DNA of 64,000 nucleotides from Planctomycetota bacterium (lineage in GTDB: Bacteria; Planctomycetota; UBA8742; UBA2392), in NCBI GenBank assembly GCA_019636215.1, contig JAHBXZ010000005.1:129159-193158 (forward strand). Reading direction: 5' to 3'. Made by a program: the position numbers and the translations under genes. The notes beneath the pieces were generated by a model. The model searched no databases, was not told the DNA's origin, and saw nothing but the letters and a program-made list of their open reading frames with translations. Below are positions 1,341 to 53,240 of the stretch, in pieces (the stretch's first letter is position 1; each line of letters begins with the position of its first letter).

Positions 1341-4300
1341 CTATCGGGCGCGACGCACCCTCATGACCACGGCCAGTGCTGCCATCAGGGCCAGCAGCGC
1401 CAGCCAGTGTGTGGTGCCGGACTCCGCCGCGCAGCCACCACCGCCGCCGCCACCGCCACCGCCGCCGCCGGACGACGGGGCGTTGATCACGATGGAAACA
1501 ACCGTGTCTTCAAACACCGGGTTGGCCGACGAATCCGTGACACGAACCGTGAAGCTGAACGGGCCGTCCACGGTAGGAGTACCGCTGACTGTGCCGATCG
1601 GGCTCAACGTCATGCCCAGTGGAGTCGCCCCGCCCACAACCGCAAAGGTATAGGGCCCGACACCGCCGCTGACGTTCAGGTTGACTGCCGTGTACGCAAA
1701 CCCGCGCAGTCCCGGCGGCAGTGTCGCGTTGGTAATGACCGGCAGGCCCGCAGCCGGGGCGGACACAATGATCGAGAACAACTGGCTCGAGCTTGCGTTC
1801 AGCGAATCCGTGCCGGTAACCGTAAAGTTGAACGTGCCCGGCGCCGCCGCAACCACGCCGCTTACCACGCCGGCCGTGCTCATGGTCAGGCCGTTGGGCA
1901 AGGTGCCCGAGGTAACCGCCAGGGTCACCGCGCCGGTGCCGCCCGCGGTGACAATCGTGGCGCCGGGGTAGGTAGTGTTCTGGGTGGCACCGGTGAGTGT
2001 GCTGCCGGTGGTGAAGGACACGGCCGGGGCAACTGCGATGGAAATGCGGATGTCCACGTCATTGGTGCCATCGGTGATCGTGACTTCCCAGACCTGAGTG
2101 CCGGCGTCGGCGGCTACAAGGGTTCCGTTGGGGAACACCTCCAGCATCGCACCCGCAACCACGGCGAAGCTGAAGCCGACGCCGGTGGAAGGCCCGCTGA
2201 TCAGGGTCGGGCTGCCGGTCAGGGCCACGGTCTGGCTGGTGTTCGGGTCACTGACTGCCGCAATGTCGCGGCTGATGGACATGCCCAGGCCGACGGTGTA
2301 GGCCGTGAGGTACGGGGTGGCCACAGAGCCGTCGCCGCTGATACCGGTGGCCGGCGCGTGAACCGGCGGGACATCGCCGATCACAATGATCACATCCACC
2401 GTGATCGGGTTGCCGGTGCCGGAATCTTCAAAGGTCACCTGCCAGATGTAGCTGCCGACAGGGTTGGTTGCATCGGCCACGCCGGTCCAGCTGAGTGTCA
2501 GCGGCTGGCCCGGTGTCGGGATCGTCGGCGCGGTGATGCCCGTGGGGACAACCGCCGGCGGGACTATCGCCGTTACCGTGATGGTGTCGCCTTCGGGGTC
2601 TGTCAGGTCAATGTCCGCGTTGGCCAGTGTGGCGCCCGGAACAACCGACTGCGTGAACGGCCCGTTCACGCCGCCGGTGAACGACGACCCGGTTGGCGCC
2701 GTGGCCTCGGCCTCGCCGTTGGGCACGTAACCTGTGCCCGAGGCAAAGAAGGTGTAGGTGCCCTCGTTGAAGTCATTGTTGAGGATAGTGATGGTGAAGG
2801 TGAATCCGCCGAGCTGTGGCGCGACATTGACCGTGAAGGTCGTGCTGTTGCCCTGCGTAACGGTGTTGCCGGGCTGGGCAGTGACATTCACCGTGGGTGC
2901 ACCCGAACCAGGCGTGACGGAAATCGGCGTGGTGATGGTCAGGTCGCCGGGGCCGGTGTTGAGAATTGTCCAGGTGAAGTTCATGCCCGTGGTGGGCACG
3001 TTGCCAAGCGCATCGGTGGTGCCGACGGCGATGCTGACGCCGGTGGTGCGTTCGACGTCGATCTCAGGCTGGGGCACGGCCGCGCGCTCATCGGCACCGG
3101 AATCGCGCTCGGCGCCGATCGGGCGGGTCTGGCCGTCAATGTCAATGTTGACGGTCGAGCCAACCGCCAGGTCAATCGCAGGCGAAATGCCCTGCAGGTG
3201 CAGGTCTTCACTGCCGCTTGTGGTGCTGACCAACAACGGGTCGGTGTTCAGGCCGTTGACGTCACGGCCCGATGCCTGCCACTCGGTCCAGGTATCAAAG
3301 TTTGTGTTGTTGCACATGACGGCAGCGCCCGCCAGGTACACGACGTTGCGGTCGACCGTCGTGGGCAGCGCCGTGCCGGTGGCGCTTTCCAGGCGATAGA
3401 AGGGTATTGCGCTGGAACTGGCGAGGTACACGACATTGAACGAGATGTTGGATATGGGGTTTGTATCGCCGTTAGTGTTGAACACGGCCCCGGTGGCCTG
3501 CCCGTTGGTGTGCACGATGCTGTTATGCTGGATCACAACGTTGCTGCCCGGCCGGCGCACGGCGATGACTCCTTTGATGCCACCAAAGAAGACTGTGGCG
3601 CCGCCGTCGCCGCCGCAGTTCCAAATCATGTTGTTGCGGATGGCCAGATTGTTCGGCCCGTTGCCGCTGCTCAATCCGTACGTCGCAATGGCCGCACCCA
3701 GGGCGATGTCATAAATCTTGCAGCCCTGGATCGTGACGTTCGAGGTGGCCACATTGTTGTAGAAGGCGATTCCGAAGTGCTGCCCGCCCGTAATAGTGAG
3801 ACCTGAAATGGTGACGTTACCCATGTGCGAGAAGCTCAAGGTGCCGGTTCCGGCGTTAGTGTAACCCTCGCCAGCGCCTGAACCGTTGATGACCGGGATC
3901 TCGCCCGATGCGGCCCGAATCGTGATCGTGTTGACTGCGCTGACACCGGGCACGTCGTCAACGACGGTCCCGTCTCCGCCAAGCTGATAGGAGGCCGTCG
4001 AGGTGAACGGGCCGCCGTCGTCGTACAGCTCAATGATCACCGGGCCGGTGACGCCCACGGTCTCCAGGGCGTCAAACACCGCGCCAAGGTCACCGAAGTC
4101 AAATGCGCCACCCGGGTTGCCGTTGGCCACTGTGTAGGTGCCGTTGAAGGGCGGCTCGGCGATGTTGAAGGTCACCGTAAAGTTGCCCGGCGTGTTGACG
4201 CCATCCGACACAACCACCGTGTAGCTGAAGCTGCCCGAAGACGTCGGTGTGCCGGTCCAGGTCAGGTTGTGCGGAACCGCCACGCCGCTCTGTGTGGCCG

Positions 4301-11788: not shown

Positions 11789-11887
11789 CCGGAAACATCT
11801 CCGGCCCCGCCCGGAATTGCCGTACAAGTGTGGGCCATTGCCTCAATTGCCGACTATGATGCTGCACCGCAGCACCGGAGGCTGACC

Positions 11888-13672
11888 ATGACCCGACTGT
11901 TGTCCCTGATTGCCGTTGCGTTTCTTCTCGGCGCGCTGCCCGTTGATGTTGCATCCCAGGAAGAATCCAAGCCTAAGCCGCCCGATTACCTGATCATCTG
12001 CGCCGACAGCCTGCACGATGCGGCATGGGAATGGGCCATGTGGCGCACCAACCACGGCCGCGCGGTGGTCGTGCGCAAACTGTCTGACATCAGCGCAGAC
12101 AAGCCCCCCACACTGGAAGCAATCCGCGAGGTCGTCCGCAAGGATGCCGGCGGCGCCACCATCACCGAAGGCTTTCAACTGCTGCTGATCGGCGACTGCC
12201 CCGTGGAAGGCCGCGAGAGTTACGACCCGAAGATTGAGATTCCCTGGTTCATGACGCCCCAGCTGGACAGCAACCCCGACCCGGCCTCGCGGGTGCGCGT
12301 ACCGACGGACAACTTCCTGGCCGACCTGGTAGATGACCCTGACCGCAAGCCCGACATCGCCGTGGGCCGCATTCCTGCACGCACGCTGGAGCAAGCCCGG
12401 GCCGCGCTGGCCAAGGTGAAGGCCTATGAAGCCGCGCCCGCCGGCGAGTGGATGCGCAACCTGACTTTCTTTGCCGGCGAAGGCCGCTTTGGTGCCAGCA
12501 TTGACAGCATGCTCGAGCGCCTGTTCACGCAGTTTGCCGAGCGCACCATCAGCCAGGATTACAACGTGCGCATGACCTACGCGAACATCAAGAGCAGCTA
12601 CGCGTACGCCCCGTCGCGCTTCAGCCGCAAGGTGCTGGACGAAGCCAATGCCGGCTCACTGATGCTGGTTTACATGGGCCACGGCCAGCGCGACCGGCTG
12701 GACAACATGTACGTGCAGGTGGAGGGCCAGAAGCTGAAGTACCCCATCCTCACCAGTGAAGACGTGAACGACTTCAACATCACTGACGGCCGCCTGCCCG
12801 TCATGTTGATCGTGGCCTGCGAAACCGGCCACATGGACTATGACGGCGAATGCCTTGCCGAGAAAATCGTGTTTCACCCCAAGGCGCCGATTGCCGTGCT
12901 GGCGTCTTCGCGTGACAGCCACCCCTACGCCAATACGCTTCTGCAGAAGGCCTTCATCAGTGAGATCACCGAAAACAAGGTGGCCACCTTGGGCGAGGCC
13001 ATGATGAAGGCCAAGCGCGAGCTGGTCGAGGCCAAGGACCCTGACCGCAAGCAGCTGGAAAACATGGCCATGTTCATCATTCCCAAAAAGGGCGAACGCG
13101 ACGAACTGAACCGCAGCCATATCTCGATGTACAACCTTTGCGGTGATCCAGGCCTTCGCCTGCGCCACCCAAGCCTGCGCTTGAAGCCGGCATTGGTGGA
13201 GTCGGCCGACCGCGCTGCAGTGCCGGGCGGCACCATTGCCATCAAGGTGAACGTGCCGTCATCGGCTGTGCTGGATGGCGAAGACGGCAAGCCCCCAACG
13301 ACCAAGTGGAAAGTGCAGCTTGAGCTTCAGTGCCGCAGAACCACCATCATGGGTGATCTGAAGACCGTGCCGGAAAAGGACCTTGCCAGCCCCGACGCCG
13401 ACAAACGCAAAGCCGCCGAGGACGTGCTTGCGGCCAACCATGCCACGTCCAACAACAAGCGTGTGGGCAGCTTCAGCCCGGCTTTTCAAGGCATCACCAT
13501 GCGCATGGGTAAGGAAGAGCTGTTCACCGACCTGCAATTCACGGCCAAACTGGACAATTCCCTTGCACCTGGTGATTACATTCTCAAAGTGTTCGCCCTC
13601 GATGAGAAAGGGGAAGCCTGCGGCTTCCAATCTCTGGAGTTGACTGTAAAGGAAGCACCCGAAAAGAAGTAA
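11888..13672 (+). CDS. Secreted clan-CD cysteine peptidase-like protein (C25 gingipain / C11-like), putative
   Basis: Signal peptide MTRLLSLIAVAFLLGALPVDVASQ. His-Gly (VYMGHGQRD) and Cys (IVACETGH) motifs in the order seen in caspase-like peptidases. The family assignment is tentative. Confidence 0.4.
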   Translation: MTRLLSLIAVAFLLGALPVDVASQEESKPKPPDYLIICADSLHDAAWEWAMWRTNHGRAVVVRKLSDISADKPPTLEAIREVVRKDAGGATITEGFQLLLIGDCPVEGRESYDPKIEIPWFMTPQLDSNPDPASRVRVPTDNFLADLVDDPDRKPDIAVGRIPARTLEQARAALAKVKAYEAAPAGEWMRNLTFFAGEGRFGASIDSMLERLFTQFAERTISQDYNVRMTYANIKSSYAYAPSRFSRKVLDEANAGSLMLVYMGHGQRDRLDNMYVQVEGQKLKYPILTSEDVNDFNITDGRLPVMLIVACETGHMDYDGECLAEKIVFHPKAPIAVLASSRDSHPYANTLLQKAFISEITENKVATLGEAMMKAKRELVEAKDPDRKQLENMAMFIIPKKGERDELNRSHISMYNLCGDPGLRLRHPSLRLKPALVESADRAAVPGGTIAIKVNVPSSAVLDGEDGKPPTTKWKVQLELQCRRTTIMGDLKTVPEKDLASPDADKRKAAEDVLAANHATSNNKRVGSFSPAFQGITMRMGKEELFTDLQFTAKLDNSLAPGDYILKVFALDEKGEACGFQSLELTVKEAPEKK

Positions 13673-17430: not shown

Positions 17431-17533
17431 ACTCCGGCACCCGGGGGCGGTGTTTCTTGTACGGGCGCACCATCCTGCTATAAGGAAGCCGGGCGGGGGC
17501 GCTTTGAGTGCCCCCGATTTGTTTGGAGCAAAC

Positions 17534-17953
17534 GTGAACGCCAAGATCCTGATTGTCGCACTGCTGTTCACGGCCGCCGTGGCCGGTGCGGTCACGCTTG
17601 CGCTGCTGGAAGGCGGTATTGAATACCGTACAGTGCCGCAGCTGTTGTCGGAGTCCTACGGCGGCGAACGCGTCAAGTTGAAGGGGCAGGTTGTGGAGAT
17701 TCAGAAGGAGTTCAAGCCCGCCCAGTTCACGGTAGTCGATATCCCGGAGGGCAGCGCGCAGCCGGGCCTCTCGTGCCTGGTGATCTACGAAGGCGATGAC
17801 GTGCCCCAGGGCCTCAAGAAGGCCGCGCACGTGACGCTGGAGGGCCGCTTTGACCGCAAGCGCGGCGCTTTTGTGGCGACCATGGTCCAGACCCAGTGCC
17901 CCAGCCGTTACGAAGGGCAGCAGTTGCCGGCAATAGAGCCGGCGTCACCGTAG
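17534..17953 (+). CDS. ccmE: Cytochrome c-type biogenesis heme chaperone CcmE, CXXXY variant
   Basis: N-terminal TM, an OB-fold region and the C-terminal motif QTQCPSRYEG (Cys where His occurs in the canonical HxxxY). GTG start at 17534 with GGAG 5 nt upstream. Immediately precedes ccmF. Confidence 0.7.
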   Translation: MNAKILIVALLFTAAVAGAVTLALLEGGIEYRTVPQLLSESYGGERVKLKGQVVEIQKEFKPAQFTVVDIPEGSAQPGLSCLVIYEGDDVPQGLKKAAHVTLEGRFDRKRGAFVATMVQTQCPSRYEGQQLPAIEPASP

Positions 17954-17959
17954 TCCAAC

Positions 17960-21210
<3,251 letters not shown>

Positions 21211-21214
<4 letters not shown>

Positions 21215-21696
21215 ACACAGCACAGTGGCTGTTCGCGCTGGTCTGTCTGATGCCCGCAACCCTGGCCGCCGGGGGCGGCGCGCGCACGCCCGAGGCCGCG
21301 GACCGCATTTATCACGAAGTCGGCGACCAGTTGTTCTGCATCTGCGGCTGCCGCGAGAAGCTGCTGACATGCAGCCACAACGTCTGCGCCCAGAAGACAG
21401 CCCAGCGCCAGTATCTGCGCGAGTTGTCGCAGAACGACGTCTACGACGCATCGGCCATGAAGCAGGAGATGGTCAAGCGCTTCGGCCCCAAGGTGTTGCA
21501 GGTGCCGGAGGACAGCAACATTTACGCAGTGCTGGCAATCGGGCTGGGGGCTCTGGCCACCGCCTTTGGCGGCATGTTCTGGTACATTGTGGGTCGCAAC
21601 CGGGCACAGGCCGAGGCCGCCACGGCCGCGCCTGCCGCCGCTGTTCCCGACGAACTGGAACAGCGCATTGAACGCGACATGCAGGAGCTTGAATGA
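21211..21696 (+). CDS. ccmH: Cytochrome c-type biogenesis protein CcmH/CycL-like
   Basis: Signal peptide. Paired-Cys motif LFCICGCREKLLTCS, compared with LRCxxC in CcmH. A C-terminal TM. ATGA overlap with ccmF. Confidence 0.6.
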
Positions 21697-22088
21697 ACCG
21701 GGTCGGTTTACTGCGCGTGGTGCTTGCCAGCGGCTTTGGTGCCGCGGCGGCCTCGCTGTTTGAACCGTGGCTGGCGCCGGTTGCGGCCTTGCTGCTGTTG
21801 CTGACGCTTTCACCTTTTGCCCGGCGCAGGCGCATCTGGTTTGTGGGCGAGGTTGAGTCCGAGTACGCCATTGTTTCGCGCCGGCGCGAGGAATCCCTGC
21901 GCGCCATGAAAGACCTGGAAGAAGACCGCCTGGCCGGCAAGGTAAGCGCCCGCGAGTTTGAGCTTCAGCGGCCGCAGCTGCTGCAGGCCGCCAAAGAGGC
22001 CACCGCGGCGCTGGATATCATCACGGCGCGGCGCCAGGAGGCCCGCCGCAAGATAGAGGCCTCGCTGGAGAAACCGGGCGAAGCATGA
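21693..22088 (+). CDS. Small membrane protein with a CcmI N-terminal-type cytoplasmic motif
   Basis: Two TM helices, then SLRAMKDLEEDRLAGKVSAREFELQRPQLLQ, which resembles the CcmI/CycH cytoplasmic leucine-zipper-like loop. ATGA overlap with ccmH. Confidence 0.4.
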   Translation: MNRVGLLRVVLASGFGAAAASLFEPWLAPVAALLLLLTLSPFARRRRIWFVGEVESEYAIVSRRREESLRAMKDLEEDRLAGKVSAREFELQRPQLLQAAKEATAALDIITARRQEARRKIEASLEKPGEA

Positions 22089-24354: not shown

Positions 24355-24486
24355 GATGCTTTCCGGCAATTGTGAGCGAACCCTTTGCAGCCAAGGCAGT
24401 TACGCCAATGGGCACACACCCGCCGGAGGGCGTGGGCAATTTTGGCGTAGCCTTTGCGGGTGTGTTTGACCCGATCTGGAGGCCCA

Positions 24487-25023
24487 ATGACACGTCGTTC
24501 TAGGTCAGGCTTTACCCTGATCGAACTCATTATCGTCGTGGGCATCATCAGCGTCCTTGCTGTGGTGCTGATTGCGGTGCTGTTGAATGCGCAATCCAGC
24601 GGCGAGGTGGCCAAGGCCCGCAACTTCGTGAACACCATTCTGCCGGCAGCGATTGCCAAGTGGCAGGAAGACACGGGCAAAGGCAGCAACACTTACCCGC
24701 GCAGCGGCGCGAACAAGCCCGGCGCTTACTACGACGGCAACAAGCTGCTGTACGAGGAACTGGTAACGCTGCCCGGCAACTCCGGCAAGGGCGCGTACAT
24801 CGGCGTGGATCAGTACGTGAAGGGCGAGCTTGAGGGCAAGCCGGTGTTTCTGGACCCCTGGAACAACCCTTACATTTACCGCAATCACTCCGCCAAGAAG
24901 GCCAAGAATGCCAACGAGGTCGAGTACCGCGGAAAGAAGTACAACGACAACTTCGACATGATCTCAGCCGGCCCGGATGGAAAGCCTGACACCGAAGATG
25001 ACGTCTACAACGGGTCGAACTAG
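24487..25023 (+). CDS. Type II secretion / type IV pilus-like major pseudopilin, GspG-like
   Basis: Prepilin N-terminus RSRSGFTLIELIIVVGIISVLAVVL. GspG-like C-terminal region DPWNNPYIYRNHS...FDMISAGPDGKPDTEDDVYN. GGAGG RBS. Confidence 0.75.
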   Translation: MTRRSRSGFTLIELIIVVGIISVLAVVLIAVLLNAQSSGEVAKARNFVNTILPAAIAKWQEDTGKGSNTYPRSGANKPGAYYDGNKLLYEELVTLPGNSGKGAYIGVDQYVKGELEGKPVFLDPWNNPYIYRNHSAKKAKNANEVEYRGKKYNDNFDMISAGPDGKPDTEDDVYNGSN

Positions 25024-25033
25024 GAGAGCCGCC

Positions 25034-25615
25034 GTGAACACCACAAGAAACAGCCGCCGCGGCTTCACACTGATCGAGTTGATGATCGTAATCGGCATCA
25101 TCGCCGTGCTGGTGGCGGTGCTTGCCATGGCTGTGCTGCCGTGGCTTTCCAAATCTTCCGAAAACTCGACCAAGGCACTGCTCAGCAGCGTGGGCGGCCT
25201 GGTAACAGCCGAACGCAACCCGTTCACCCTGGAACGCTTCCGCAAGGATGTCGGGCCCAGCCTGTCCAGCCAGGTCGACAGTGACCCCAAAAAAGCGTCG
25301 GCACAGATGCTGATTTTCTATTACGCGCCCAGCCAGGACACCTGGAAGAAGTCCGTCTACTTCAAGGGCCAGAACTACGACCCGAAGGTGCAGCCCAAGG
25401 ATTGGGTTGAAAGCACCAAGGTCGGCGGCAACGCCCCTGACCTGCCGTACCTGACGGACTTCTGGAACAACGAGCTGTACTACTACTACGACAAGGCCGC
25501 CAAGATTGTGGTGATCCGGTCCTGGGGCCCCGATGGCCAGCCCGACACCGATGACGACCTGGCATTCGATGGCGGCAGTAACCGTGTGGTGTACTGGAAC
25601 GAACTGAAGAAGTAA
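25034..25615 (+). CDS. Second GspG-like pseudopilin
   Basis: RRGFTLIELMIVIGIIAVLVAV. C-terminal SWGPDGQPDTDDDLAFDGG. GTG start at 25034 after an AGGAGAG RBS. Confidence 0.7.
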   Translation: MNTTRNSRRGFTLIELMIVIGIIAVLVAVLAMAVLPWLSKSSENSTKALLSSVGGLVTAERNPFTLERFRKDVGPSLSSQVDSDPKKASAQMLIFYYAPSQDTWKKSVYFKGQNYDPKVQPKDWVESTKVGGNAPDLPYLTDFWNNELYYYYDKAAKIVVIRSWGPDGQPDTDDDLAFDGGSNRVVYWNELKK

Positions 25616-25626
25616 CCGGAGGCAGC

Positions 25627-26292
25627 ATGCGCCCCGCCAAACGCAAGGGCTTTACGCTGGTAGAACTGCTGGTCGTGATCGCGCTGATCGCGCTGCTGAT
25701 GACCGTCATGGTGCCGGTGATCCTGAAGTTCATGTCCGGCCGGGGCCTTTCGATGGCCGGCAACAACATTGCCGGGTTCATTGCCTACGCTCGCACCGAG
25801 GCCATGAACACGCGCCAGACGCACGTGATCGTGATGTTCCAGAAAGAAGAAGACCGTACCCCGCCGGGTTCAACTATTTCGCGCATTGTGGGGCCGGGCA
25901 TGGTGCTGTTCCGCATCAACCCTAACCCGGGGCAGGACGAACAAGTCGTCAACTTCGTCAAGGAACTGAACTTCAAGGCCCAGGTCGGCGGCGATGTGCG
26001 CTTTGCGGATTCCTGGGAACGCAAGTGCCCCAAGGGCCCGCTGCTGGAGCTGCCGCAATCCGTCAACGAAAGCTTCGACGGCAAGTACAAGCTGGTGCTG
26101 CGCCCCGACGGCCGCGTCGTGGTGCCTGAAGACAAGCCCGGCTATGTGCTGGACGTGAAGGAAAACCGCAACCTGGACACCGACATCATCCTGACCGACG
26201 ACCGGCGCTATGTGTTCATTGACGTAAACCCGGCCACGGGCAACACCCGGCGTTCTTCACCACTGGACAAGGACGAAGTCGGCGATCGCTAG
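25627..26292 (+). CDS. Minor pseudopilin, GspH/FimT-like
   Basis: KRKGFTLVELLVVIALIALLMTV prepilin motif. GGAGG RBS. Confidence 0.6.
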   Translation: MRPAKRKGFTLVELLVVIALIALLMTVMVPVILKFMSGRGLSMAGNNIAGFIAYARTEAMNTRQTHVIVMFQKEEDRTPPGSTISRIVGPGMVLFRINPNPGQDEQVVNFVKELNFKAQVGGDVRFADSWERKCPKGPLLELPQSVNESFDGKYKLVLRPDGRVVVPEDKPGYVLDVKENRNLDTDIILTDDRRYVFIDVNPATGNTRRSSPLDKDEVGDR

Positions 26293-26313
26293 TCGATCCA
26301 AGGAACCAAGGCC

Positions 26314-27093
26314 ATGAAACACATGCCCAAGCAACGGCGGCGCGGCTTCACCCTGACGGAAATCCTGGTCGCGATGGCGATTTTCGCGCTGGGTGGTTCC
26401 GCCATTGTGGCGCTGTTTATCACCAACGCGCGGCTTTCGCGCCAGGCCATGGACTACACCCGGGCCTCGGAAATCAGCCGCAACATCCGTTCACTGATGA
26501 CGCAGTCGCTGTCACGGCCGATCGTGACCAACAACGAGCCTGTCTACAAGTTTGACTACCCCGGCAGCTCGCTTACGTTCCGGCCCAGCCAGTACATCAA
26601 GGACCGCGAGCAGTCCAAGTATCGCGGCGAAGACACAGTCATCGGCGGCACACCCGTTGAGAACACGGTGTTCTTCAAGCTGCCCAAACAGCAGTTTGAC
26701 GTGCGCGTAAAAGGCGAGGAATCTCAGCGCCAGATGATCACGTCGCTTCCGAACGATGCCACGGATTCAGGCGGGTTTGTCCGCAGCTTCCCCAATGGCA
26801 GGCCCGAGGCCTTCCGCCTTCTGCCCGACCGCCTGCGCCAGAGCGGCGCGCTGGACGGGCTGGACCCGGACGACCGCATGTTTTACGCGTTTGATATCTC
26901 GATCCGCCGCAGCGTCGCCCGCAGCGAGGTCGATGACCCCGCCCGCCCGGGCGCCAAGGCACCCCTGGAAGACCTGTTTGTGGTGCATGTGAAGGTCTAC
27001 AAGGGCTTTGACTTCAAGGAAGACAACCAGGGCACAGAAGTGGTGAATGACCCCCTCTATGAGTGGGACTTCTACATCACGGCTGCGCGCTAG
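26314..27093 (+). CDS. Minor pseudopilin, GspI-like, unusually long (259 aa)
   Basis: RRRGFTLTEILVAMAIFALGGSAIVALF. Confidence 0.55.
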   Translation: MKHMPKQRRRGFTLTEILVAMAIFALGGSAIVALFITNARLSRQAMDYTRASEISRNIRSLMTQSLSRPIVTNNEPVYKFDYPGSSLTFRPSQYIKDREQSKYRGEDTVIGGTPVENTVFFKLPKQQFDVRVKGEESQRQMITSLPNDATDSGGFVRSFPNGRPEAFRLLPDRLRQSGALDGLDPDDRMFYAFDISIRRSVARSEVDDPARPGAKAPLEDLFVVHVKVYKGFDFKEDNQGTEVVNDPLYEWDFYITAAR

Positions 27094-27102
27094 GAGACCA
27101 AC

Positions 27103-28170
27103 ATGCGTACACGCATTCGCCTTGGCAGCCGCGGTTTCACGCTGCTGGAACTGATGATCGCGATCGCGCTGATGCTGATCGTGATGCTGATGCTGCGCAC
27201 CATGTTCGTGACCGCACAGGACATGTACGTTCGCGCGTCACGCCGTGTGGAGGTCTACCAGCAGGCCCGCGCCGCGCTTGACCTGATTGAACAGGACTTC
27301 ATGCGCATCCGCGACAGTGGCTCGGACGACACGGACGTGCTGGGGTTGCGCAGCCTGAAGCCCGAAGACTACGCCAACCCCGACGCGGCCCGCAAGGCGC
27401 GCATGTACAGCGAAATGGGCGACTGGAACACACCGTCGGCCAACGAATCCGTCAAAATCCGTGAACTGGTTTCATTCACCGGCACGGCCACCTGGTATGA
27501 CCAGGAACAGAAGAAGTACACCACCGGCGACGCGATTGTGCTGTATTACCTGCGCAAGCGCATCCCCATCGACGGCCAGAAGGTAGAAGGCGCATACCTG
27601 GTGCGCCGCGTACTGCCCGTGCGAAGCCTGGCCGAACTGGCCCGCATCGGCCGAGGCATGGCACCTTTGCATGACATCAAGCCGCACGAAGAAGAGATCG
27701 CAAACTTCGTCTATTCGGCCCGCGTCTATTGTGACGACCAGGCGGCGTTCCAGCTGGGCGTACGCAACGGCAACTTCAACTACGACACCATGCCCGAGTG
27801 CAGCACCGACGTGAAGAACCGCGACTGGCTATGGGTGAAGACAGCATTGGCCGGCCCCGGTGGCTCGCAGCCGCTGCCGCAGGGCCAGGGCCCCACGCTG
27901 ATCCTGCCCACCCCGCCCAAGGAGGACCGCGTCGAGTTCGGCGGCGTGTGGCGCACCCACACCGCGCCCGACCGCGAGTTTGTCTCGGCCCGCTGGAATA
28001 TGCCCAGCGTGGTTGTGATTGACCTCATGATGATTGACCGCAGCTTTGAGCGCTTTGGTGCAAGTGACGGTTCAGGTACCTATCGATCCTTCAGCCGGGC
28101 CATCCAGTTGCCGGCTTCCGGCCCGATGTACCGCCTGGATTCCCGCGACATCCAGCTGCTGACACGATAG
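27103..28170 (+). CDS. Minor pseudopilin, GspJ-like (355 aa)
   Basis: SRGFTLLELMIAIALMLIVMLML. AGGAGA RBS. Confidence 0.55.
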   Translation: MRTRIRLGSRGFTLLELMIAIALMLIVMLMLRTMFVTAQDMYVRASRRVEVYQQARAALDLIEQDFMRIRDSGSDDTDVLGLRSLKPEDYANPDAARKARMYSEMGDWNTPSANESVKIRELVSFTGTATWYDQEQKKYTTGDAIVLYYLRKRIPIDGQKVEGAYLVRRVLPVRSLAELARIGRGMAPLHDIKPHEEEIANFVYSARVYCDDQAAFQLGVRNGNFNYDTMPECSTDVKNRDWLWVKTALAGPGGSQPLPQGQGPTLILPTPPKEDRVEFGGVWRTHTAPDREFVSARWNMPSVVVIDLMMIDRSFERFGASDGSGTYRSFSRAIQLPASGPMYRLDSRDIQLLTR

Positions 28171-29119: not shown

Positions 29120-30766
29120 TCAGGCCGAGCGGCGTCGCACTGCCACCAGCAGGCCGCACAGCAGCACAACCAGGCCCGCCCACCCGAAGCTGTCCGTTGT
29201 GGAACAACCGCCTTCGCCCGGTGCCTCCAGCGGCGATTGCGTGCTGCCCGGGTCGTTGCCGCCGGTGTCGTTTACCGTCACCTGCACGACCGCGCTGTCG
29301 AAGTTACCGTTGCCGTCATCCACGATCAGCTCAAACGTGAAGTTCTGGTTGAAGGGTACCTGCGGCGCGGTGAACGTGGCGCTGGCCGACGTGGCGTTGT
29401 TGATCGTCACGATGGTGCTGCCCCCCACCTGCCGCCAGGTGAAACGCAGCACGTCCGTAGCGTTGGGGTCAAAGCTGCCGGTTCCGTTCAGGGTTACTGT
29501 CGCGCCCTCATTGACTGTCTGGGCAATGCCCGCATTGGCCGTGGGCGGGGCACCAGTGCCACCGGTGAAACGCAGCCGGTACAGCACGGTTTCGGTCAGG
29601 ATATACATGTGGCCGTCCGGCCCGAACTTCACGTCGCGCACAGCGGCGGAAAGATCCGTCACCATCGGCCACATGGCCACGGCCTGGCGCTCGTTGCCGC
29701 CGCTCAGCATCACGCGTACCACCATCGCGCCCGGCTTGGGCCCGATCACAGGGAAGGTCACCGTGCCGCTGGCGCTTTCGCGCCCCACGTACACACAGGC
29801 TGTGCGGTGCCCGATGGCAGGAAACGCCGTGGCTGTCTGGGGGTAGAACGCGACACTGCCCGGTTCAAAGTTGGCGGGCATCACCCACGCCGGGTTGGTG
29901 TAGTTCACATTGCCCTGGTTGCCGCTGTTGCCGGCGGTGTCCCAGCCATAGTTCAGGCCGGGTCGGACCACATTCAGTTCGTCCACGCCAGACGTGGCGG
30001 GGTTGCCGGTGTCGGCCACAAAGAGGTCCCCGGTGGCAGGGTTGAAGGCCATGCCGCGCGGGTTGCGAAAGCCGCGCGCGAACATGGGGTTGTTGATGAT
30101 CGGGTTGCTCAACGGCGGCTGGCCGTTGTTGCGCTGGACGCGCAGTACCTTGCCGCGCCGGTCGTTCACGTCCTGGGCTTGCGCGCCGCCCAGCGCCACA
30201 GACGTGCTGGCGTCACCCACGCTGACGCACAGGTTGCCATCGGCGCCGATCTCCAGGCTGCCGCCGAAATTCGCGCCGTTAGCGCCCATGGCAATGCCGG
30301 TAACCACCGTGAACTCGCTGGCGGCAAGGGCAGTGCCAAGGCTGGCTACGTCCTCTGTGTAACGCACCACCGTCAGCGCGCCCGAGGGATTGCCCGAGTA
30401 GCAAACATACACGTAGCGATTGGTCGCATCACCCGGCGCCAGCGGAAACAACGGGTCCAGCACAATGCCGTGCATGCCGTTGTCATCGGCCGCCGGGGGA
30501 AAGTAGTTGGCCACAGTCACAAACGTGGTCAGCACCGGCGGGCCCACGGTGGTGTCCAGGCAGTACACCCGCCCGTTTGCCCCGTCATTGCCGGTGAAGA
30601 AGATCCGGCCGTCGGGGCCGATGGCCATGGCGCGGCCATTGGTCACGGGGTTCTGGACAGTATCCAGCGTGAAACCCCCGGCTGGGCTTGGCTGACAGTA
30701 CAGCAGCGGCGCAAGGCAGACCGCCGCAAGCAACATCAGAATCCGCATCCGTTGATCCCGGGGCAT
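29120..30766 (-). CDS. Exported beta-propeller sugar dehydrogenase-like protein (SGL/PQQ-dependent type) with a C-terminal PKD domain and a Gly-Cys-TM-Arg sorting tail
   Basis: Signal peptide MRILMLLAAVCLAPLLYCQ. PKD-like TVNEGATVTLNGTGSFDPNATD...VDDGNGNFDSAVVQVTV. The tail is GEGGCSTTDSFGWAGLVVLLCGLLVAVRRRSA. Confidence 0.55.
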   Translation of the reverse strand: MPRDQRMRILMLLAAVCLAPLLYCQPSPAGGFTLDTVQNPVTNGRAMAIGPDGRIFFTGNDGANGRVYCLDTTVGPPVLTTFVTVANYFPPAADDNGMHGIVLDPLFPLAPGDATNRYVYVCYSGNPSGALTVVRYTEDVASLGTALAASEFTVVTGIAMGANGANFGGSLEIGADGNLCVSVGDASTSVALGGAQAQDVNDRRGKVLRVQRNNGQPPLSNPIINNPMFARGFRNPRGMAFNPATGDLFVADTGNPATSGVDELNVVRPGLNYGWDTAGNSGNQGNVNYTNPAWVMPANFEPGSVAFYPQTATAFPAIGHRTACVYVGRESASGTVTFPVIGPKPGAMVVRVMLSGGNERQAVAMWPMVTDLSAAVRDVKFGPDGHMYILTETVLYRLRFTGGTGAPPTANAGIAQTVNEGATVTLNGTGSFDPNATDVLRFTWRQVGGSTIVTINNATSASATFTAPQVPFNQNFTFELIVDDGNGNFDSAVVQVTVNDTGGNDPGSTQSPLEAPGEGGCSTTDSFGWAGLVVLLCGLLVAVRRRSA

Positions 30767-30823: not shown

Positions 30824-32872
30824 TCAATTGATCAGCTTGACGCCGCGGGGTGAAAGAAACACGGCAAAGGGCCGCCCGACAAACAGCCGGCGCTCCACAT
30901 AGGGCACCAGTTGCACCTGAATGGTCTCGATCTCGGAAAGGGCCAGCCGGGCCTGGCCGCCGCCTTCGGTATAGAAGCTGACGGCGCCGCGCCCTTCCTG
31001 CCTGGCATGGCTGCGCAACTGCGCCATGGCTTGCGCCACCAGCTCGCCGTCCGTGGCGGGGTCGGCGCGCTCAAACGGTTTCAGCAGGGCAACCCGCTGG
31101 AACTTCTGCAGGGCCGACAGGCCTTCGCCGCGGCCCGCACCGGCCAGCAATTGCGCAAGATCCTGCCCGGCGTCGTCCAGGCCGCCAATCACCTGGGTTC
31201 CGTCTTTCATGCGGATGATGGCGCGAATCCAGGCCCGGGCATCCTTGCTGCCCGGCGAGTTGTCGCCCAGCACGAAGTAGTGGTCGCCCTCCAGCTTCAC
31301 GCCAAAGGGCAGCTCCCGCGCGGCACCGGCCTCAGGCAGCACGCGCCCGACATAGTACACGTCGCGCTCAATACCCTTTACCACCACCGTGCCGCCGCCC
31401 GCGGCCCCGCCGCGAATCTCAAACCTGGCCTGTCGGCCCTCGGCAGGTTCTGCGGTTGCCAGCTTGACGGCGTCGTCACCGGAAAGCTCCAGGCGCTTCT
31501 GCTTGTCGCGGCTGCGCAGCGCCGACAGCAACGGTGACCCGACATTCTCGTAGAACTCGCTGCCGTGCAGGACGATCGAAAGCACGCCGTCTGCCAGCCC
31601 GAACTGCACATCCACGTTGCTGCCCGTCGGAAGCTCCAGCCCCGCCAAAGCGCCCACCAGCAGCCGGTGCTGGGCATTGGCACTGGATTCATGCACAAGG
31701 CTGCATCCGCCGGCACCGGCTTTCAGGGTAAGGCGATAGCGGTCACCGTCACGAACGATGGTCAGGCCAAGTTCTGATTCCGCGTCCAGGCGCACGCGCA
31801 GCCGGGCACGGAAGTCGCCGCACACGTTTCGCCCGAAGTTCTCTCGCGGCGTCTCCGTGCCGCCGAAACTGGCGTCGTGGTCTGTCACGTTGCCCGGTGT
31901 GGTGCCCGAACCTTTGGGGAACACGGCCGCGCCGCCCTTGCCCACTAGGATCGCGCCATCCTTGAAATCCACTTCGCCGTCGCGCTGGAAGCTGCTGACC
32001 CAGTCCTTGGTGCCGGCCAGTTCGCGCAGCAGCGGCAGCCACAGCACGTCGCGCGCGGGCTGCGGCTTGGTCAGCAGTTCAATCGGCGAACCCTCGTTGC
32101 GGCGGATGTAGATGTCGCCCTGCGCAATCAGCAGGTCTTCGCCGGGCAGGCCGATCAACCGCTTCACGTAAGGGTCGCTGCGCCGCAACGGGTACCGGAA
32201 CACCACTGGTTCCCAGCGCTGCGGGTCGCGGAATTCGTAGGCCATTTTGTCTACAAACACACGGTCGCCCCACACCGGGTCGCCACTGAGCGTCGGCGCC
32301 ATGCTGCCTGACGGGATGCGAAAAGCCTCCAGCGCGAAGTGCCAGACCAGCAGCACAACCACAAGTGCCGACGCCAGGCTTTCCACCTGGTCAAACAGAG
32401 CACTGACAGGCTTGCGGGCCGTTGTCCGCAGGTCACGCCCCTTGATCTGCGCGCGCGCCACGCTGCCTCGCAGCGCCGCAGCCGAAAGCAACCCCAGCAA
32501 CCCGGCCACGCCGGCCCATCCGCTGGCGTTCTGCATCGCGGCTGCCACCAATGACGTCCCGGCCAGTGCAACCAGAAGGCCGCCGCGCACCACAGGCGAT
32601 GTGGTAAGTGCGCGACGCCGGAACACGTACCAGGCAGCGCCGTTTGCCGCCAGCAGCGAACAAATGGCGGGCAGTCTCAGCCACACACCCTCCAGGCGGG
32701 GCGTATCGAACAGGGCGACTATGCCGGCCACTGTTGCGGCTGCGGCGCTCAAATTGGCAACCACGCCGCGAACCTGCGGGCTTAGGCGATAGTAACCCTT
32801 GCGGGAAACAGGTGCGGTGACAGTGTCGTCCGGCATATGGCGAAAGCTATAGTTCGCGGCCCCCGGCCACAA
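30824..32872 (-). CDS. Type I signal peptidase (LepB family), atypically large: an N-terminal polytopic membrane region, a roughly 300-aa insertion between boxes D and E, and a C-terminal extension
   Basis: Box B SGSMAPTL, box C GDRVFVDK, box D YVKRLIGLPGEDL, box E FVLGDNSPGSKDARAW. The start could be the downstream Met at 32836. Confidence 0.6.
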   Translation of the reverse strand: MWPGAANYSFRHMPDDTVTAPVSRKGYYRLSPQVRGVVANLSAAAATVAGIVALFDTPRLEGVWLRLPAICSLLAANGAAWYVFRRRALTTSPVVRGGLLVALAGTSLVAAAMQNASGWAGVAGLLGLLSAAALRGSVARAQIKGRDLRTTARKPVSALFDQVESLASALVVVLLVWHFALEAFRIPSGSMAPTLSGDPVWGDRVFVDKMAYEFRDPQRWEPVVFRYPLRRSDPYVKRLIGLPGEDLLIAQGDIYIRRNEGSPIELLTKPQPARDVLWLPLLRELAGTKDWVSSFQRDGEVDFKDGAILVGKGGAAVFPKGSGTTPGNVTDHDASFGGTETPRENFGRNVCGDFRARLRVRLDAESELGLTIVRDGDRYRLTLKAGAGGCSLVHESSANAQHRLLVGALAGLELPTGSNVDVQFGLADGVLSIVLHGSEFYENVGSPLLSALRSRDKQKRLELSGDDAVKLATAEPAEGRQARFEIRGGAAGGGTVVVKGIERDVYYVGRVLPEAGAARELPFGVKLEGDHYFVLGDNSPGSKDARAWIRAIIRMKDGTQVIGGLDDAGQDLAQLLAGAGRGEGLSALQKFQRVALLKPFERADPATDGELVAQAMAQLRSHARQEGRGAVSFYTEGGGQARLALSEIETIQVQLVPYVERRLFVGRPFAVFLSPRGVKLIN

Positions 32873-40569: not shown

Positions 40570-40601
40570 GAGGCGCGGCGTGTGCCGCGCCTCTTTCTAT
40601 T
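40570..40601 (+). terminator. Rho-independent terminator after the fasciclin gene
   Basis: gaggcgcggc-gtgt-gccgcgcctc followed by tttctatt. Confidence 0.75.
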
Positions 40602-40743
40602 GGGTCGTGCATAAACGCATCAAACGCATTGCGTCAGGGCATGATTGTCACTAGAGTGTCATCCCTTCCTCAATATGGACTTCGCGATGGGTTGCGCGTG
40701 CGGACGCCAGCCCGTTGCGCACATCAGAGATACAGGAGATTGT

Positions 40744-41610
40744 ATGGTGCATCATAGATTGTTTGCAGGACTGGCGGCCATTGTGCTTGCTGCCTGCGCG
40801 GGCTCCAGCCTTAAGGCGGCGCCGCTTGACCCGACGGCCTTCACGTCACTTGGCACTTTGACGATGCCGGCGGGCACATACACCATCGATACTACGGCCA
40901 TGACCATGACCGGTGGATCGATCAATTTCACGGGTGTGGCATCTGGCAACATCTGCGTGTTCACCTTTGCGTCGATCAATATCCAGGCTGGGGCCGTCAT
41001 CACCTGTCTGGGCACACGCACATTGGCGTTGCTTTCCCAAAGCACCTGCACCATCGCCGGTACCATTAACGCCAACGGTGAAAGCACGCAGGCAGGCTTC
41101 ATCGGCTACAACGCGCGCGGCGGCCCAGGTGGCGGTGCTGGTGGTCTGTCGGGCGACCTGACGGGTTACCTGGGTGGGCCCACGTTCAACCCACAGAACG
41201 GCAGTGGCCCTGGCGGCGGCCTTTGCGCTGACCAAAGCGGCGGCGCAGGCGGCGGCGGCTTCGGCACGGGTGGAGCCCGCGGCGGCGATGCCAACGGATA
41301 TCAGGGGCAGGCGGGCGGGGCTGCCTATGGCGACCTTGCCAACCTGCTGGAAGGCGGCAGCGGAGGCGGTGGCGCGGACCTTGCCAGCGGCGGCGGCGGC
41401 GGCGGCGGCGTTGAAGTCGGCGCAACCGGAGACATCTCCATACCCACCGGCGGCTCGGTTACGGCCAAAGGCGGCGACGGCGAAACCGGCAACTACGGTG
41501 CCAGCGGCGGCGGCAGTGGAGGCGGCATTTATGTACACACACCTGCCCTGCTTACGCTTGGTGGAACACTTGACGTGAGAGGTGGTGGAGGCGGCACGGG
41601 TGGATGCTGA
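40744..41610 (+). CDS. Gly-rich secreted protein, N-terminal part. It carries the signal peptide and ends at an in-frame TGA.
   Basis: Signal peptide MVHHRLFAGLAAIVLAACAGSSLKA, then GGxGG-rich sequence. Same reading frame as 41641..42765. Confidence 0.5.
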   Translation: MVHHRLFAGLAAIVLAACAGSSLKAAPLDPTAFTSLGTLTMPAGTYTIDTTAMTMTGGSINFTGVASGNICVFTFASINIQAGAVITCLGTRTLALLSQSTCTIAGTINANGESTQAGFIGYNARGGPGGGAGGLSGDLTGYLGGPTFNPQNGSGPGGGLCADQSGGAGGGGFGTGGARGGDANGYQGQAGGAAYGDLANLLEGGSGGGGADLASGGGGGGGVEVGATGDISIPTGGSVTAKGGDGETGNYGASGGGSGGGIYVHTPALLTLGGTLDVRGGGGGTGGC

Positions 41611-42765
41611 GGGTCCGCGGGCGGAGGCGCCGGCGGCCGTGTGCTGCTTACCTACGGAAGTTTCTCTAACCCCGGTTCTGGCCAGGTTCTTGCGACCGGT
41701 GGTGCCAGTGCGTCTGTCAGTGCCTGGGGCTTCGGCCCCGGCGGTACTACCGGTATGCCCGCCTCTGGCGGCCCGGCCGCAACGGAGCCTGCACCCAAGC
41801 TCGCTTTGGCTGCAACGACCGGCTTCACCGGCCCCTCCGGTGTGGAATTCACCTTCAATGCCGGAGTCGGCGTGGCATTGTCAGCGGCAAACCTGATCCT
41901 GGATCACCAGAATACCTCTGCCACGATCTCGGTCACCGCGGTCAACCCGGCCATGACGCAGAACGGCATCACGGCCCCGACTATCACCGGGTCTCAGGCA
42001 GTCGGCACTGCCTACTCATTCTCGGGGACCCCGGCATCGCTGGGCACAACCAGCTTTGATGTGACCCTGAGCGACGGCCTGCTCAGCAAGACCTGGCGCG
42101 CGACCTTCAATGTGACCAACTCGGTCGCGCCGCTGATCACAAGCACCGCCGTCACTACGGCGCAGGTCGGCGTGGTGTACACGTACAACATTGTTGCAAC
42201 CGGTGCGCCGTCGCCATCGCTCAGTGTGGCGGGCAATCCGGGGTGGCTGACCCTGACAGGCAATGTCCTGTCGGGTACGCCCCCGGCCGTTGGTACGGCG
42301 GGCCCGATCACCATCACGGCCTTCAACGGCATCTCGCCGGACGCCACACAGATTTTCTCCATCACCATTGATCCGGCACCGACGGCACCGCTGATCACCA
42401 GCAGCGCTGTGACCAGCGCGGTTGTCGGTGGCATCTACACCTACAACATCACCGCAACCGGCAACCCCAGCCCGACCATCATGGTCACTGGTCTGCCGCT
42501 GTGGCTGTCGCAAGTAGGCAATGCAATCACTGGCACTCCCGCTGCGGGCGACATTGGGACCACAGCCCTGATCACGGTCACCGCCACAAACGGCGTCAGC
42601 CCTGATGCTGTCCAGACATTCACCATAACCGTCTCCACTCCGACCACTATCGGCGGTGGCGGCGGCGGTGGCGGCGGCGGTGGTTGCGCCGCTGGAGCGC
42701 CTGCTGCAATTCTGCCGTTGTTTGCCCTGCTGGCTGCGGTGGTTCGTCGCCGCCGTCGTTCCTAG
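41611..42765 (+). CDS. Gly-rich / Ig-like repeat surface protein, C-terminal part. It has no signal peptide of its own and carries the poly-Gly-Cys-TM-Arg sorting tail.
   Basis: Continues in frame straight after the TGA (GSAGGGAGGRVLLTYG...). Repeats ...APLITSTAVTTAQVGVVYTYNIVATG.... C-terminus IGGGGGGGGGGGCAAGAPAAILPLFALLAAVVRRRRRS. Confidence 0.5.
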   Translation, partial: GSAGGGAGGRVLLTYGSFSNPGSGQVLATGGASASVSAWGFGPGGTTGMPASGGPAATEPAPKLALAATTGFTGPSGVEFTFNAGVGVALSAANLILDHQNTSATISVTAVNPAMTQNGITAPTITGSQAVGTAYSFSGTPASLGTTSFDVTLSDGLLSKTWRATFNVTNSVAPLITSTAVTTAQVGVVYTYNIVATGAPSPSLSVAGNPGWLTLTGNVLSGTPPAVGTAGPITITAFNGISPDATQIFSITIDPAPTAPLITSSAVTSAVVGGIYTYNITATGNPSPTIMVTGLPLWLSQVGNAITGTPAAGDIGTTALITVTATNGVSPDAVQTFTITVSTPTTIGGGGGGGGGGGCAAGAPAAILPLFALLAAVVRRRRRS

Positions 42766-42856
42766 GGCAATGACTCAGGCTGGATCAACCGGGCGACGGC
42801 TTGCCGTCGCCCGGTTTCATTTCTGTGGCCCCATATGCATGCGATACACTGCGACA

Positions 42857-52536: not shown

Positions 52537-53240
52537 CCTTTGACGCCTTCCTCATCACCTGTGAACACGCCAGCAACGCTGTGCCCGTGCGCTGGCGCGA
52601 GCCTTTTGCCGACACGACGCAGGTGCTGGAGTCCCACCGCGCCTGGGACCCCGGCGCGCTTGTACTGGCTGGCGAGTTCGCACGCCTGCTCGATGCCCCC
52701 CTGTTCAAGGGCCAGGTCACGCGACTGCTGGTCGATCTCAACCGGCGCGAAACCGGCAAGGGCGTGCTGAGTGATTACTCGCGTCAGTTCGACCTTGAAA
52801 AGCGCGTGGCATTGCTGAACCTTTACCACCGGCCCTATCGCGTTGCCGTACTCGATGCTGTCACGGACCGTATCCGCGCCGGGCGCAAACTGCTGCACCT
52901 TTCGTGCCACAGTTTCACGCCGGTGCTGGACGGCCAGACGCGCACGGCCGAGATCGGCCTGCTGTTCGACCCGCGACGCAAGCCTGAAAACGCGCTGTGC
53001 AAGGCCTGGCGCAAGGCCATGGCTGCGGCCCTGCCGAAGCACCGCATCAAGCTGAACTACCCGTACAAGGGCACAAGCGACGGCATGACTACCTGGTTGC
53101 GCGAGCAGTTCCCGGCCACACGCTACGCGGGCATTGAGATCGAGCTCAACCAGAGCTTCGCCATGCAGCCGGCGGCCCGTTGGGCCGACGTGCGACAGGC
53201 CTTGAAGTCAACCCTGCGCGCCTGCCTGCGTTCCGGGTGA
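52533..53240 (+). CDS. N-formylglutamate amidohydrolase (FGase) family hydrolase
   Basis: MTFDAFLITCEHASNAVP, the FGase CEHA-type motif. ATGA overlap with the GCS2 gene. Confidence 0.8.
   Translation: MTFDAFLITCEHASNAVPVRWREPFADTTQVLESHRAWDPGALVLAGEFARLLDAPLFKGQVTRLLVDLNRRETGKGVLSDYSRQFDLEKRVALLNLYHRPYRVAVLDAVTDRIRAGRKLLHLSCHSFTPVLDGQTRTAEIGLLFDPRRKPENALCKAWRKAMAAALPKHRIKLNYPYKGTSDGMTTWLREQFPATRYAGIEIELNQSFAMQPAARWADVRQALKSTLRACLRSG

Follow-up and report, generated by a model that had tools for sequence, protein, structure and literature searches.

The 64,000-nucleotide stretch of Planctomycetota bacterium DNA analysed here (contig JAHBXZ010000005.1 of assembly GCA_019636215.1, referred to as the window) encodes three unrelated exported proteins that end in the same way. 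These are a giant protein with immunoglobulin-like (Ig-like) domains, a sugar dehydrogenase dependent on pyrroloquinoline quinone (PQQ) and a protein with a Gly-rich N-terminal half. Each ends in a Gly-Cys motif, a short spacer, a hydrophobic helix and a cluster of basic residues. We propose, with a probability of about three in four, that these tails are a lineage-specific C-terminal sorting and anchoring domain of an uncultured clade of Planctomycetota, belonging to the class of cysteine-containing tripartite signals of which MYXO-CTERM is the prototype. Judged by its sequence, the planctomycete tail is a previously undescribed variant that is closest to MYXO-CTERM and is not MYXO-CTERM proper. 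Cysteine-containing C-terminal sorting signals are a recently recognised way of surface attachment in prokaryotes. To our knowledge, such signals (MYXO-, JDVT-, Synerg- and CGP-CTERM) have so far been found only in Myxococcota/Bradymonadales, some Proteobacteria, Synergistetes and Thermococcales, and the tails described here would extend them to the Planctomycetes-Verrucomicrobia-Chlamydiae (PVC) group.

A stop-to-stop scan of the open reading frames (ORFs) of at least 60 amino acids in the whole window returned exactly three real genes with a Gly-Cys, a spacer, a hydrophobic helix and at least two basic residues. The same filter returned one spurious small ORF from 1.05 Mb of non-planctomycete loci. 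The first-pass annotation of this DNA had pointed to the shared ending on three exported proteins, and all three sequences were found exactly as given there. It had also described a glycine run and an invariant cysteine in each protein; the cysteine is present in all three, the glycine run is missing from the dehydrogenase, which has merely GEGGC. In the other two proteins the run is indeed encoded by consecutive GGY codons (GGC/GGT), of which the giant protein has 12 and the third ORF 11. All three carriers have an N-terminal signal-like segment. The giant protein matches the choice_anch_Q model NF041518 at 52.8 bits (cutoff 25). The dehydrogenase is 100% identical to NCBI/ENA protein P0001 (542 aa), and several other proteins of the window have identical counterparts among NCBI proteins MBX3474272-MBX3474295 (locus tags KF754_*). 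The coordinates of the tails and of the other features discussed are collected in Table 1.

The anatomy of the tail was read from 139 representative sequences aligned on the cysteine. The 14 residues that precede the cysteine are 52% Gly, the remainder being mostly Asp and Ser. Gly occupies position -2 in 85% and position -1 in 97% of the tails, and the cysteine at position 0 is present in 100%. Position +1 is Ser (64%), Ala (14%), Thr (10%) or Val (9%) and position +2 is most often Thr (48%) or Ala (27%). The commonest residues at positions +8 to +10 are Pro (20%), Trp (39%) and Leu (27%). A Trp is found within positions +5 to +13 in 101 of the 139 tails, and a Leu/Ala helix runs from about +9 to +23. 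Arg is present in 60-68% of tails at positions +24 to +27, and the C-terminus lies a median of 30 residues past the cysteine. A second cysteine within four residues of the first occurs in three of the 139. The consensus therefore opens with a flexible linker rich in Gly, Asp and Ser and with G-G-C-[S/A/T/V]-[T/A/S]; about eight residues that are small or polar come next, then a Leu/Ala helix of some 15 residues with Trp at its start, and last R-x-R-R. The cysteine is the sole invariant column in an alignment (A4) of 40 tails from the lineage.

A profile of 45 positions, built from these 40 tails, matched 239 representatives at E<=1e-3 in a search of 1.84 billion representative proteins. The match lies at the extreme C-terminus in almost all of the best 150 of the 239, and a regular-expression check placed the tail at the C-terminus in 137 of 143 sequences retrieved from those top 150. 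Ten of the profile matches were looked up, and each that has a source name comes from a Planctomycetota metagenome-assembled genome (MAG); the NCBI names of the looked-up carriers are 'hypothetical', 'putative Ig domain' and 'choice-of-anchor D' proteins. One MAG, GCA_016712285.1, contains at least five carriers: the orthologue of the window dehydrogenase (locus L014), P0126, P0290 and two neighbours of P0290. A word-indexed search of 5.8 billion proteins, which is insensitive for a query of 41 amino acids, returned three short fragments with E-values of 0.6-5, and two of these weak matches are named Synerg-CTERM and MYXO-CTERM. On the profile count, a tail that is clearly related to the known cysteine-containing signals, yet distinct from them, is present on at least 239 protein clusters of this uncultured clade, which include adhesin-like giants, metalloproteases and a PQQ dehydrogenase.

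Among 64 carriers scanned, choice-of-anchor D was found in 30, choice-of-anchor Q in nine, He_PIG in 15, HYDIN/VesB-like Ig domains in 16 and DUF1573 in 15; several carriers are metalloproteases. What defines the 'choice-of-anchor' families is that the C-terminal anchor they precede varies from lineage to lineage. In three sets of carriers, 41/41, 17/21 and 57/72 have a hydrophobic signal-like segment at the N-terminus. On these domain assignments the cargo appears typical of sorted surface proteins.

A search with the dehydrogenase returned 47 orthologues with the full architecture (a GSDH and a PKD domain), which are 41-100% identical to it. All 47 end in GE(G/E/N)GC with a short spacer of Ser, Thr and Gly behind it, then a Trp-rich helix and a cluster of basic residues. 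Directly before GE(G/E/N)GC the linker is hypervariable. In 41 aligned orthologues, where column identity averages 58%, E512, G514 and C515 do not vary. Because the motif columns are invariant while the preceding linker is hypervariable, the GEGGC region bears the signature of a recognition site, and the pattern points to selection on the motif itself. Orthologous loci were found in 16 to 17 other Planctomycetota bacterium MAGs (L004-L020). In about 12 of these (L004-L015), whose dehydrogenases are 50-76% identical, a gene order of about 20 kb (window positions 17900-38800, approximately) is kept, comprising the ccm genes, an ABC ATPase, five pseudopilins, a phosphoesterase, the dehydrogenase, an S26 signal peptidase, a peroxiredoxin and an acyl-CoA dehydrogenase.

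Some 20 homologues of the giant protein from planctomycetes (P0124-P0141, P0143, P0144 and P0185) end in (G/S/D)n-GGGC-[AVST] followed by a helix and Arg. These proteins are 1.5-3.4 thousand amino acids long and differ in domain architecture. The same He_PIG passenger ends in autotransporter barrels (PF03797) in Proteobacteria and in type IX secretion system (T9SS) tails (PF18962) in Bacteroidota. Since other phyla put these modules at this position, the planctomycete tail stands in the place of a module for surface anchoring.

A plain, unprocessed C-terminal membrane anchor on a Gly-rich stalk, with the cysteine used for a disulfide or a metal contact, is an unlikely explanation of these endings. 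A helix followed by an Arg cluster is the look of any C-terminal anchor, and the arginines fit the positive-inside rule. CcmF (window positions 17960-21214), the only other real gene in the window that ends in a helix and RRRR, ends alike without a cysteine, and neither the window nor about 0.5 Mb of related loci yielded an enzyme that could process the tail. However, G-G-C is kept at 85%, 97% and 100% beside a hypervariable linker, and GEGGC is invariant in the orthologues, which argues for a recognition site and not for a stalk. The choice-of-anchor and adhesin-like Ig cargo, in proteins of up to 3.4 thousand amino acids, needs to reach the cell surface, and homologues in other phyla have outer-membrane or surface modules where the tail stands. 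The tails also score to curated sorting-signal models.

When the tails were compared with those models, as the first-pass annotation had suggested, the MYXO-CTERM models were the best or near-best and one window tail scored above cutoff. This is the tail of the third gene, which reaches 18.1 bits within its ORF and 23.9 bits as a tail alone (cutoff 15.85) with TIGR03382, the GC_trans_RRR model that NCBI names 'MYXO-CTERM sorting domain'. The dehydrogenase tail scores 17.8 bits (cutoff 20) with the MYXO-CTERM model TIGR03901. For the giant protein the best model is JDVT-CTERM (NF033191), at 19.7 bits (cutoff 27), and MYXO-CTERM gives 9.7 bits. NCBIfam release 20.0 has no model dedicated to the planctomycete tail. 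Of the 40 lineage tails, 22 match TIGR03901 at E<=0.02 (best 8.5e-8) and 12 at E<=7e-4, a value estimated to equal about the 20-bit cutoff of that model. JDVT-CTERM is the second most frequent model, with 12 and 2 matches at the same two thresholds, and the GlyGly-CTERM model TIGR03501 has 2 and 0. Because of these counts we class the tail with the cysteine-containing tripartite signals, nearest to MYXO-CTERM. The tails had been described earlier as sorting signals of the exosortase or rhombosortase type, closest to MYXO-CTERM; the tripartite layout and the closeness to MYXO-CTERM stand, the enzyme type does not, since MYXO-CTERM is processed by a CPBP-type myxosortase. One window tail scores above a curated cutoff and the tail is present on many further proteins, so the case in which every tail is sub-threshold and there are no further carriers did not arise.

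A GlyGly-CTERM-like signal cut by rhombosortase, an enzyme of the rhomboid family, is slightly less probable than a plain anchor. In such a signal Gly-Gly would be the true signature and the cysteine incidental. Gly-Gly does stand directly before the cysteine in 85-97% of tails, the VesB-like Ig domain of 16 of the 64 carriers is known from a rhombosortase substrate, and three carriers match a rhombosortase-dependent M36 model over their body. GlyGly-CTERM, and not MYXO-CTERM, has been reported in the planctomycete Rhodopirellula baltica (PMC3237569), in the sole paper of the searched literature that names both planctomycetes and MYXO-CTERM. Against this, no window tail matches GlyGly-CTERM, the counts for TIGR03501 over the 40 tails (2 and 0) are far below the 22 and 12 for MYXO-CTERM, and the cysteine, which GlyGly-CTERM does not require, is 100% invariant. 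There is also no rhomboid gene in the window.

We consider it improbable that the tail is a PEP-CTERM signal processed by an exosortase, or the substrate of another extracytoplasmic transpeptidase of the sortase kind such as the C25/PorU-like peptidase encoded in the window. The tail of the third gene comes close to the PEP-CTERM model TIGR02595, at 15.6 bits (cutoff 16), through its helix and Arg part alone. The three window tails lack a P-E-P motif, the 40 lineage tails match 16 families of which PEP-CTERM is not one, and the window has no exosortase gene. The C25 peptidase is anchored at its N-terminus, and among NCBIfam models it matches best the catalytic region of the T9SS sortase PorU, but at 99.9 bits this match is far under the cutoff of 420, and three housekeeping genes stand between the peptidase and the giant-protein gene.

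A chance or low-complexity artefact of a GC-rich genome, in which poly-GGC is followed by an Ala/Leu/Arg-rich translation, may be dismissed: the window is 63% GC and the codons for Gly, Ala and Arg are GC-rich, but the three tails lie in long ORFs with a coding-like GC content at third codon positions, control DNA is essentially without matches, and the idea is refuted by the conservation of the motif in 47 orthologues and by the bias of the profile matches to the extreme C-terminus (137/143).

For a cysteine-containing sorting domain, a pathway can be drawn by analogy with Myxococcus. The model there comprises export by Sec, retention by the helix, lipidation of the cysteine, a cut distal to the cysteine by a CPBP-type myxosortase and delivery to the surface by a type II secretion system (T2SS) (PMC11980579). 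In the planctomycete clade the cargo would likewise be exported by Sec by means of its N-terminal signal peptide. The C-terminal helix would then keep the cargo in the cytoplasmic membrane, the Arg cluster lying on the inner side and GGC at the periplasmic face. The invariant cysteine would be lipidated, for which Lgt is a candidate, and an intramembrane protease, by analogy a CPBP/Rce1-like 'myxosortase', would remove the helix. The lipid-anchored protein could finally be delivered to the surface, possibly by a T2SS-like system.

Lgt is also the leading candidate for lipidating the MYXO-CTERM cysteine (PMC11980579), and tail genes are found beside lgt in part of the planctomycete lineage. A recurring island was seen in the neighbourhoods of four profile matches and in a metagenome scan seeded with Lgt. 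It is flanked on one side by a conserved block of fatty-acid-type genes and on the other by a block that comprises lgt, genes for a PDZ protein and a methyltransferase, and those of complex I. The island contains one to three or more tail genes, which differ in number and identity among genomes. In five genomes (L087, L088, L089, L096 and L171/L172), 72-109 bp separate the end of the last tail gene from lgt, which follows downstream on the same strand. Identity among the island's four full-length Lgt proteins is 66-75%, and the L087 protein passes the lgt equivalog model TIGR00544 (139.5, cutoff 118.9). Most of the Lgt genes retrieved by the metagenome scan were unrelated and of weak similarity, many of them from gut metagenomes; L089 and L096 were the only informative loci. 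No tail genes occur near two Lgt loci that are more distant (37-38% identity). These arrays bear on the question of which enzyme lipidates the invariant cysteine. Tentatively, Lgt, a housekeeping diacylglyceryl transferase, might lipidate the tail cysteine in an inverted topology in place of a dedicated enzyme, the arrays might be kept upstream of lgt for co-expression, and the protease that takes off the helix might be one not recognisable as a myxosortase; we think this combination doubtful. If true, comparative genomics would gain its first handle on the enzyme that lipidates MYXO-CTERM-type signals, and the tails would represent a fifth lineage-specific cysteine-sorting system, in the PVC superphylum.

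Several observations weigh against a MYXO-CTERM-class sorting domain. Two of the three window tails score below every curated cutoff, and only about 30% of the tails from the lineage come up to the MYXO-CTERM cutoff as estimated. Pfam scans of 43 window genes, together with motif scans, revealed no gene of the CPBP, rhomboid or exosortase type in the window, which bears out the earlier remark that the window shows no candidate sorting peptidase of these types. In about 0.5 Mb of related loci from planctomycetes, a scan for CPBP motifs gave nothing credible. MYXO-CTERM and the myxosortases have been described as confined to Myxococcota and Bradymonadales, singletons elsewhere being deemed false positives, and the myxosortase core model (NF040914) found nothing outside these groups in 14,000 proteomes (bioRxiv 10.1101/2023.06.07.544157). 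No further tail genes are present in the flanks of 16 dehydrogenase loci (about 300 kb), and carriers are therefore not dense everywhere. Finally, the linkage to lgt, which is a genomic one, does not extend beyond a single lineage and a single syntenic island, and it may therefore be an insertion or recombination hot spot beside a housekeeping gene.

Because the published core model finds nothing outside Myxococcota and Bradymonadales, the protease of this clade may be divergent from the known myxosortases (MrtX/MrtC/MrtP) or may belong to another family. Given that limit of the model, this protease is a target for search. The tails assembled here can serve as the seed alignment of a lineage-specific model, which would improve the annotation of the carriers.

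The third carrier needs a revised gene model. The reading frame 41611..42765 had been taken for a Gly-rich protein; it has no start codon and is the in-frame continuation of the ORF 40645..41610 across a TGA. The signal peptide MVHHRLFAGLAAIVLAAC begins at 40744, in the upstream part. When the two parts are rejoined the protein still scores above the TIGR03382 cutoff (17.1 against 15.85). The signal peptide (window positions 40744-40800) ends in a lipobox-like L-A-A-C, and the third carrier may thus combine an N-terminal lipoprotein signal with the C-terminal cysteine tail.

The TGA is probably a nonsense mutation or an assembly error. Selenocysteine at this codon is unsupported: there is no match to a SECIS family and the downstream fold has z = 0.35 relative to shuffled sequences. 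No tRNA-Sec was found in the window, and the rejoined protein has no match to a selenoprotein family or to OS_HP2. Among the 64 carriers (alignment A5), nine match the NCBIfam model for the OS_HP2 family (seleno)protein, with a best E-value of 7.3e-11.

A sister strain (ENA ERZ2606016 NODE_42) is 99.4% identical to the window over 21 kb. At the position of the third gene it has another cassette (L169 8000-11324, compared with window 40597-42985), with flanks that are 97.5% identical. This cassette encodes a 574-aa Ig-repeat protein with its own cysteine tail, TGSCTAASESVTTWCLLALLAVLGLRRRVRA (TGSC...RRRVRA), and a 487-aa HTH protein. The tail carriers act as exchangeable surface-protein cassettes, so that a decaying pseudogene is a reasonable reading of the TGA. 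The window has an M90 (MtfA-like) metallopeptidase gene directly after the third gene. This pairing is not kept in the sister strain, where the M90 gene adjoins a fasciclin gene and its product is just 86.5% identical to that of the window.

The 682-aa signal peptidase I (S26) upstream of the dehydrogenase gene had been called the only nearby protease, which does not hold, as C25, M90, C39-like and S15 peptidases are also encoded in the window. The S26 enzyme is a housekeeping candidate for cleavage of N-terminal signals and not for processing of the tail. It was rejected for the latter role because it is an ordinary signal peptidase I equivalog whose adjacency belongs to the 20 kb synteny block, and because four orthologous loci (L008, L016, L017 and L019) have kept the tail but not this adjacency. 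The 7 kb that follow the right end of the window contain no protease of interest. A T2SS-like cluster of pseudopilin genes lies about 1 kb from the dehydrogenase gene, in a synteny held in 12 related loci. Pseudopilin clusters are common in Planctomycetota, and we therefore treat this one as context only.

Two further groups of genes were seen on the forward strand of the window. A cytochrome c maturation operon (17450-22088) encodes CcmE, a CcmF of 1084 amino acids and CcmH. A cluster at 49131-53240 encodes the C39-like peptidase, a RimK-like ATP-grasp protein with RLAN, a GCS2 glutamate-cysteine-ligase-like protein and an N-formylglutamate amidohydrolase, and may be a peptide-modification or amide-bond module.

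Table 1. Tail carriers, their tail elements and other features discussed in the text. Positions are those of the window unless a locus is named.
Feature	Position	Strand	Remarks
Giant exported protein, 2212 aa	1341..7979	-	Signal peptide, two choice-of-anchor Q, He_PIG Ig-like domains, C-terminal tail
Giant protein, end of tail	1341..1430	-	Spacer AAESGTTH, helix WLALLALMAALAVVM, basic RVRRAR, stop
Giant protein, invariant Cys codon TGC	1431..1433	-	Cys in 100% of 139 representative tails
Giant protein, linker	1434..1469	-	12 consecutive GGC/GGT Gly codons before Cys, from codon listing
C25 peptidase, membrane-anchored (N-terminal anchor)	11828-13672	+	Three housekeeping genes from giant-protein gene
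Five prepilin-type (GFTLIEL) pseudopilin genes, T2SS-like cluster	24454..28170	+	TIGR02532 above cutoff; partial GspG-like match
PQQ-dependent sugar dehydrogenase with PKD and tail	29120..30748	-	Pfam GSDH, K319L-like PKD
Dehydrogenase, end of tail	29120..29203	-	Spacer STTDSFG, helix WAGLVVLLCGLLVAV, RRR, SA, stop
Dehydrogenase, tail signature GEGGC	29204..29218	-	E, G and C invariant in 41 aligned orthologues
Signal peptidase I (S26), 682 aa, upstream of dehydrogenase gene	30824..32872	-	PF10502; TIGR02227 78.7 against cutoff 47
Third carrier, single 673-codon gene with in-frame TGA	40744..42765	+	Signal peptide, Gly-rich N-terminal half, Ig-like repeats, tail
Third carrier, in-frame TGA	41608..41610	+	Context GGC TGA GGG, in Gly-rich stretch
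Third carrier, tail	42652..42765	+	11 GGY codons, Cys 42685-42687, spacer AAGAPAA, helix ILPLFALLAAVV, RRRRRS, stop
M90 (MtfA-like) metallopeptidase	42800-43708	+	35 bp after third-gene stop codon
C39-like peptidase	49131-49853	+	
S15 peptidase	56620-58281		
Tail-gene array by lgt	L087 7851-15682		Three tail genes
Tail-gene array by lgt	L088 10001-17046		Two tail genes
Tail-gene array by lgt	L089 3-2678 and L096 2-1297		Two tail genes
Tail-gene array by lgt	L171 8001-11349 / L172 3330-6678		One tail gene
Three large genes, up to locus end	L170 8001-19357		Two with confirmed tails

The tail can be compared with several known systems. Bacterial lipoproteins, which are processed by Lgt and LspA, share with it an invariant cysteine, a small residue at -1 (Gly in 97% of tails), Ser, Ala or Thr at +1 and a position at the periplasmic face beside a helix. 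Unlike the lipobox [LVI][ASTVI][GAS]C, the planctomycete tail has Gly or Asp at -3 and no Leu, and its topology is inverted, the helix being C-terminal to the cysteine. CAAX processing by prenylation and Rce1 offers a conceptual model, in which a C-terminal cysteine is lipidated and the downstream peptide is then cut by an intramembrane glutamic protease (PMC11980579). In CAAX proteins three residues follow the cysteine, whereas the planctomycete tail continues for about 30 residues that include a helix; the compartment would be the periplasm, and no Rce1-like gene was seen.

GlyGly-CTERM proteins, the substrates of rhombosortase, have Gly-Gly before a helix and an Arg cluster, and VesB-like Ig domains in their cargo, as the planctomycete carriers do. 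They are surface proteins that depend on the T2SS, a system that may also serve the planctomycete carriers. The difference lies in the cysteine, which is invariant after Gly-Gly in the planctomycete tails and is not required in GlyGly-CTERM.

Like Synerg-CTERM and CGP-CTERM, JDVT-CTERM shares with the planctomycete tail the tripartite design and a single invariant cysteine. It also carries an almost invariant Asp-Pro about nine residues past the cysteine, which the planctomycete tails lack; at +9 these have Trp in 39%. Window tails score 19.7 and 16.8 bits with the JDVT-CTERM model, below its cutoff of 27. JDVT-CTERM proteins are typically paired with MrtJ (PMC11980579), and no CPBP gene adjoins the planctomycete carriers. 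Synerg-CTERM differs in having an invariant Pro, which is not present in the planctomycete helix, and CGP-CTERM in having Gly-Pro after the cysteine.

MYXO-CTERM is the nearest of the known systems. MYXO-CTERM often has GCGC, in contrast to the single cysteine of the planctomycete tails, and these have a poly-Gly/Asp linker, C-[S/A]-T and a Trp-started helix, most of them scoring below the cutoff. The phylum is also different, all named source organisms of the carriers being planctomycetes. Genomes of Myxococcota have 6-43 MYXO-CTERM carriers each, and three carriers of the planctomycete tail are present in this 64-kb window. Both signals have the same tripartite layout at the extreme C-terminus, with Gly followed by an invariant cysteine, a helix of about 15 residues and an Arg cluster. 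Both are about 34 amino acids long, follow a disordered linker and are found on many unrelated secreted surface proteins.

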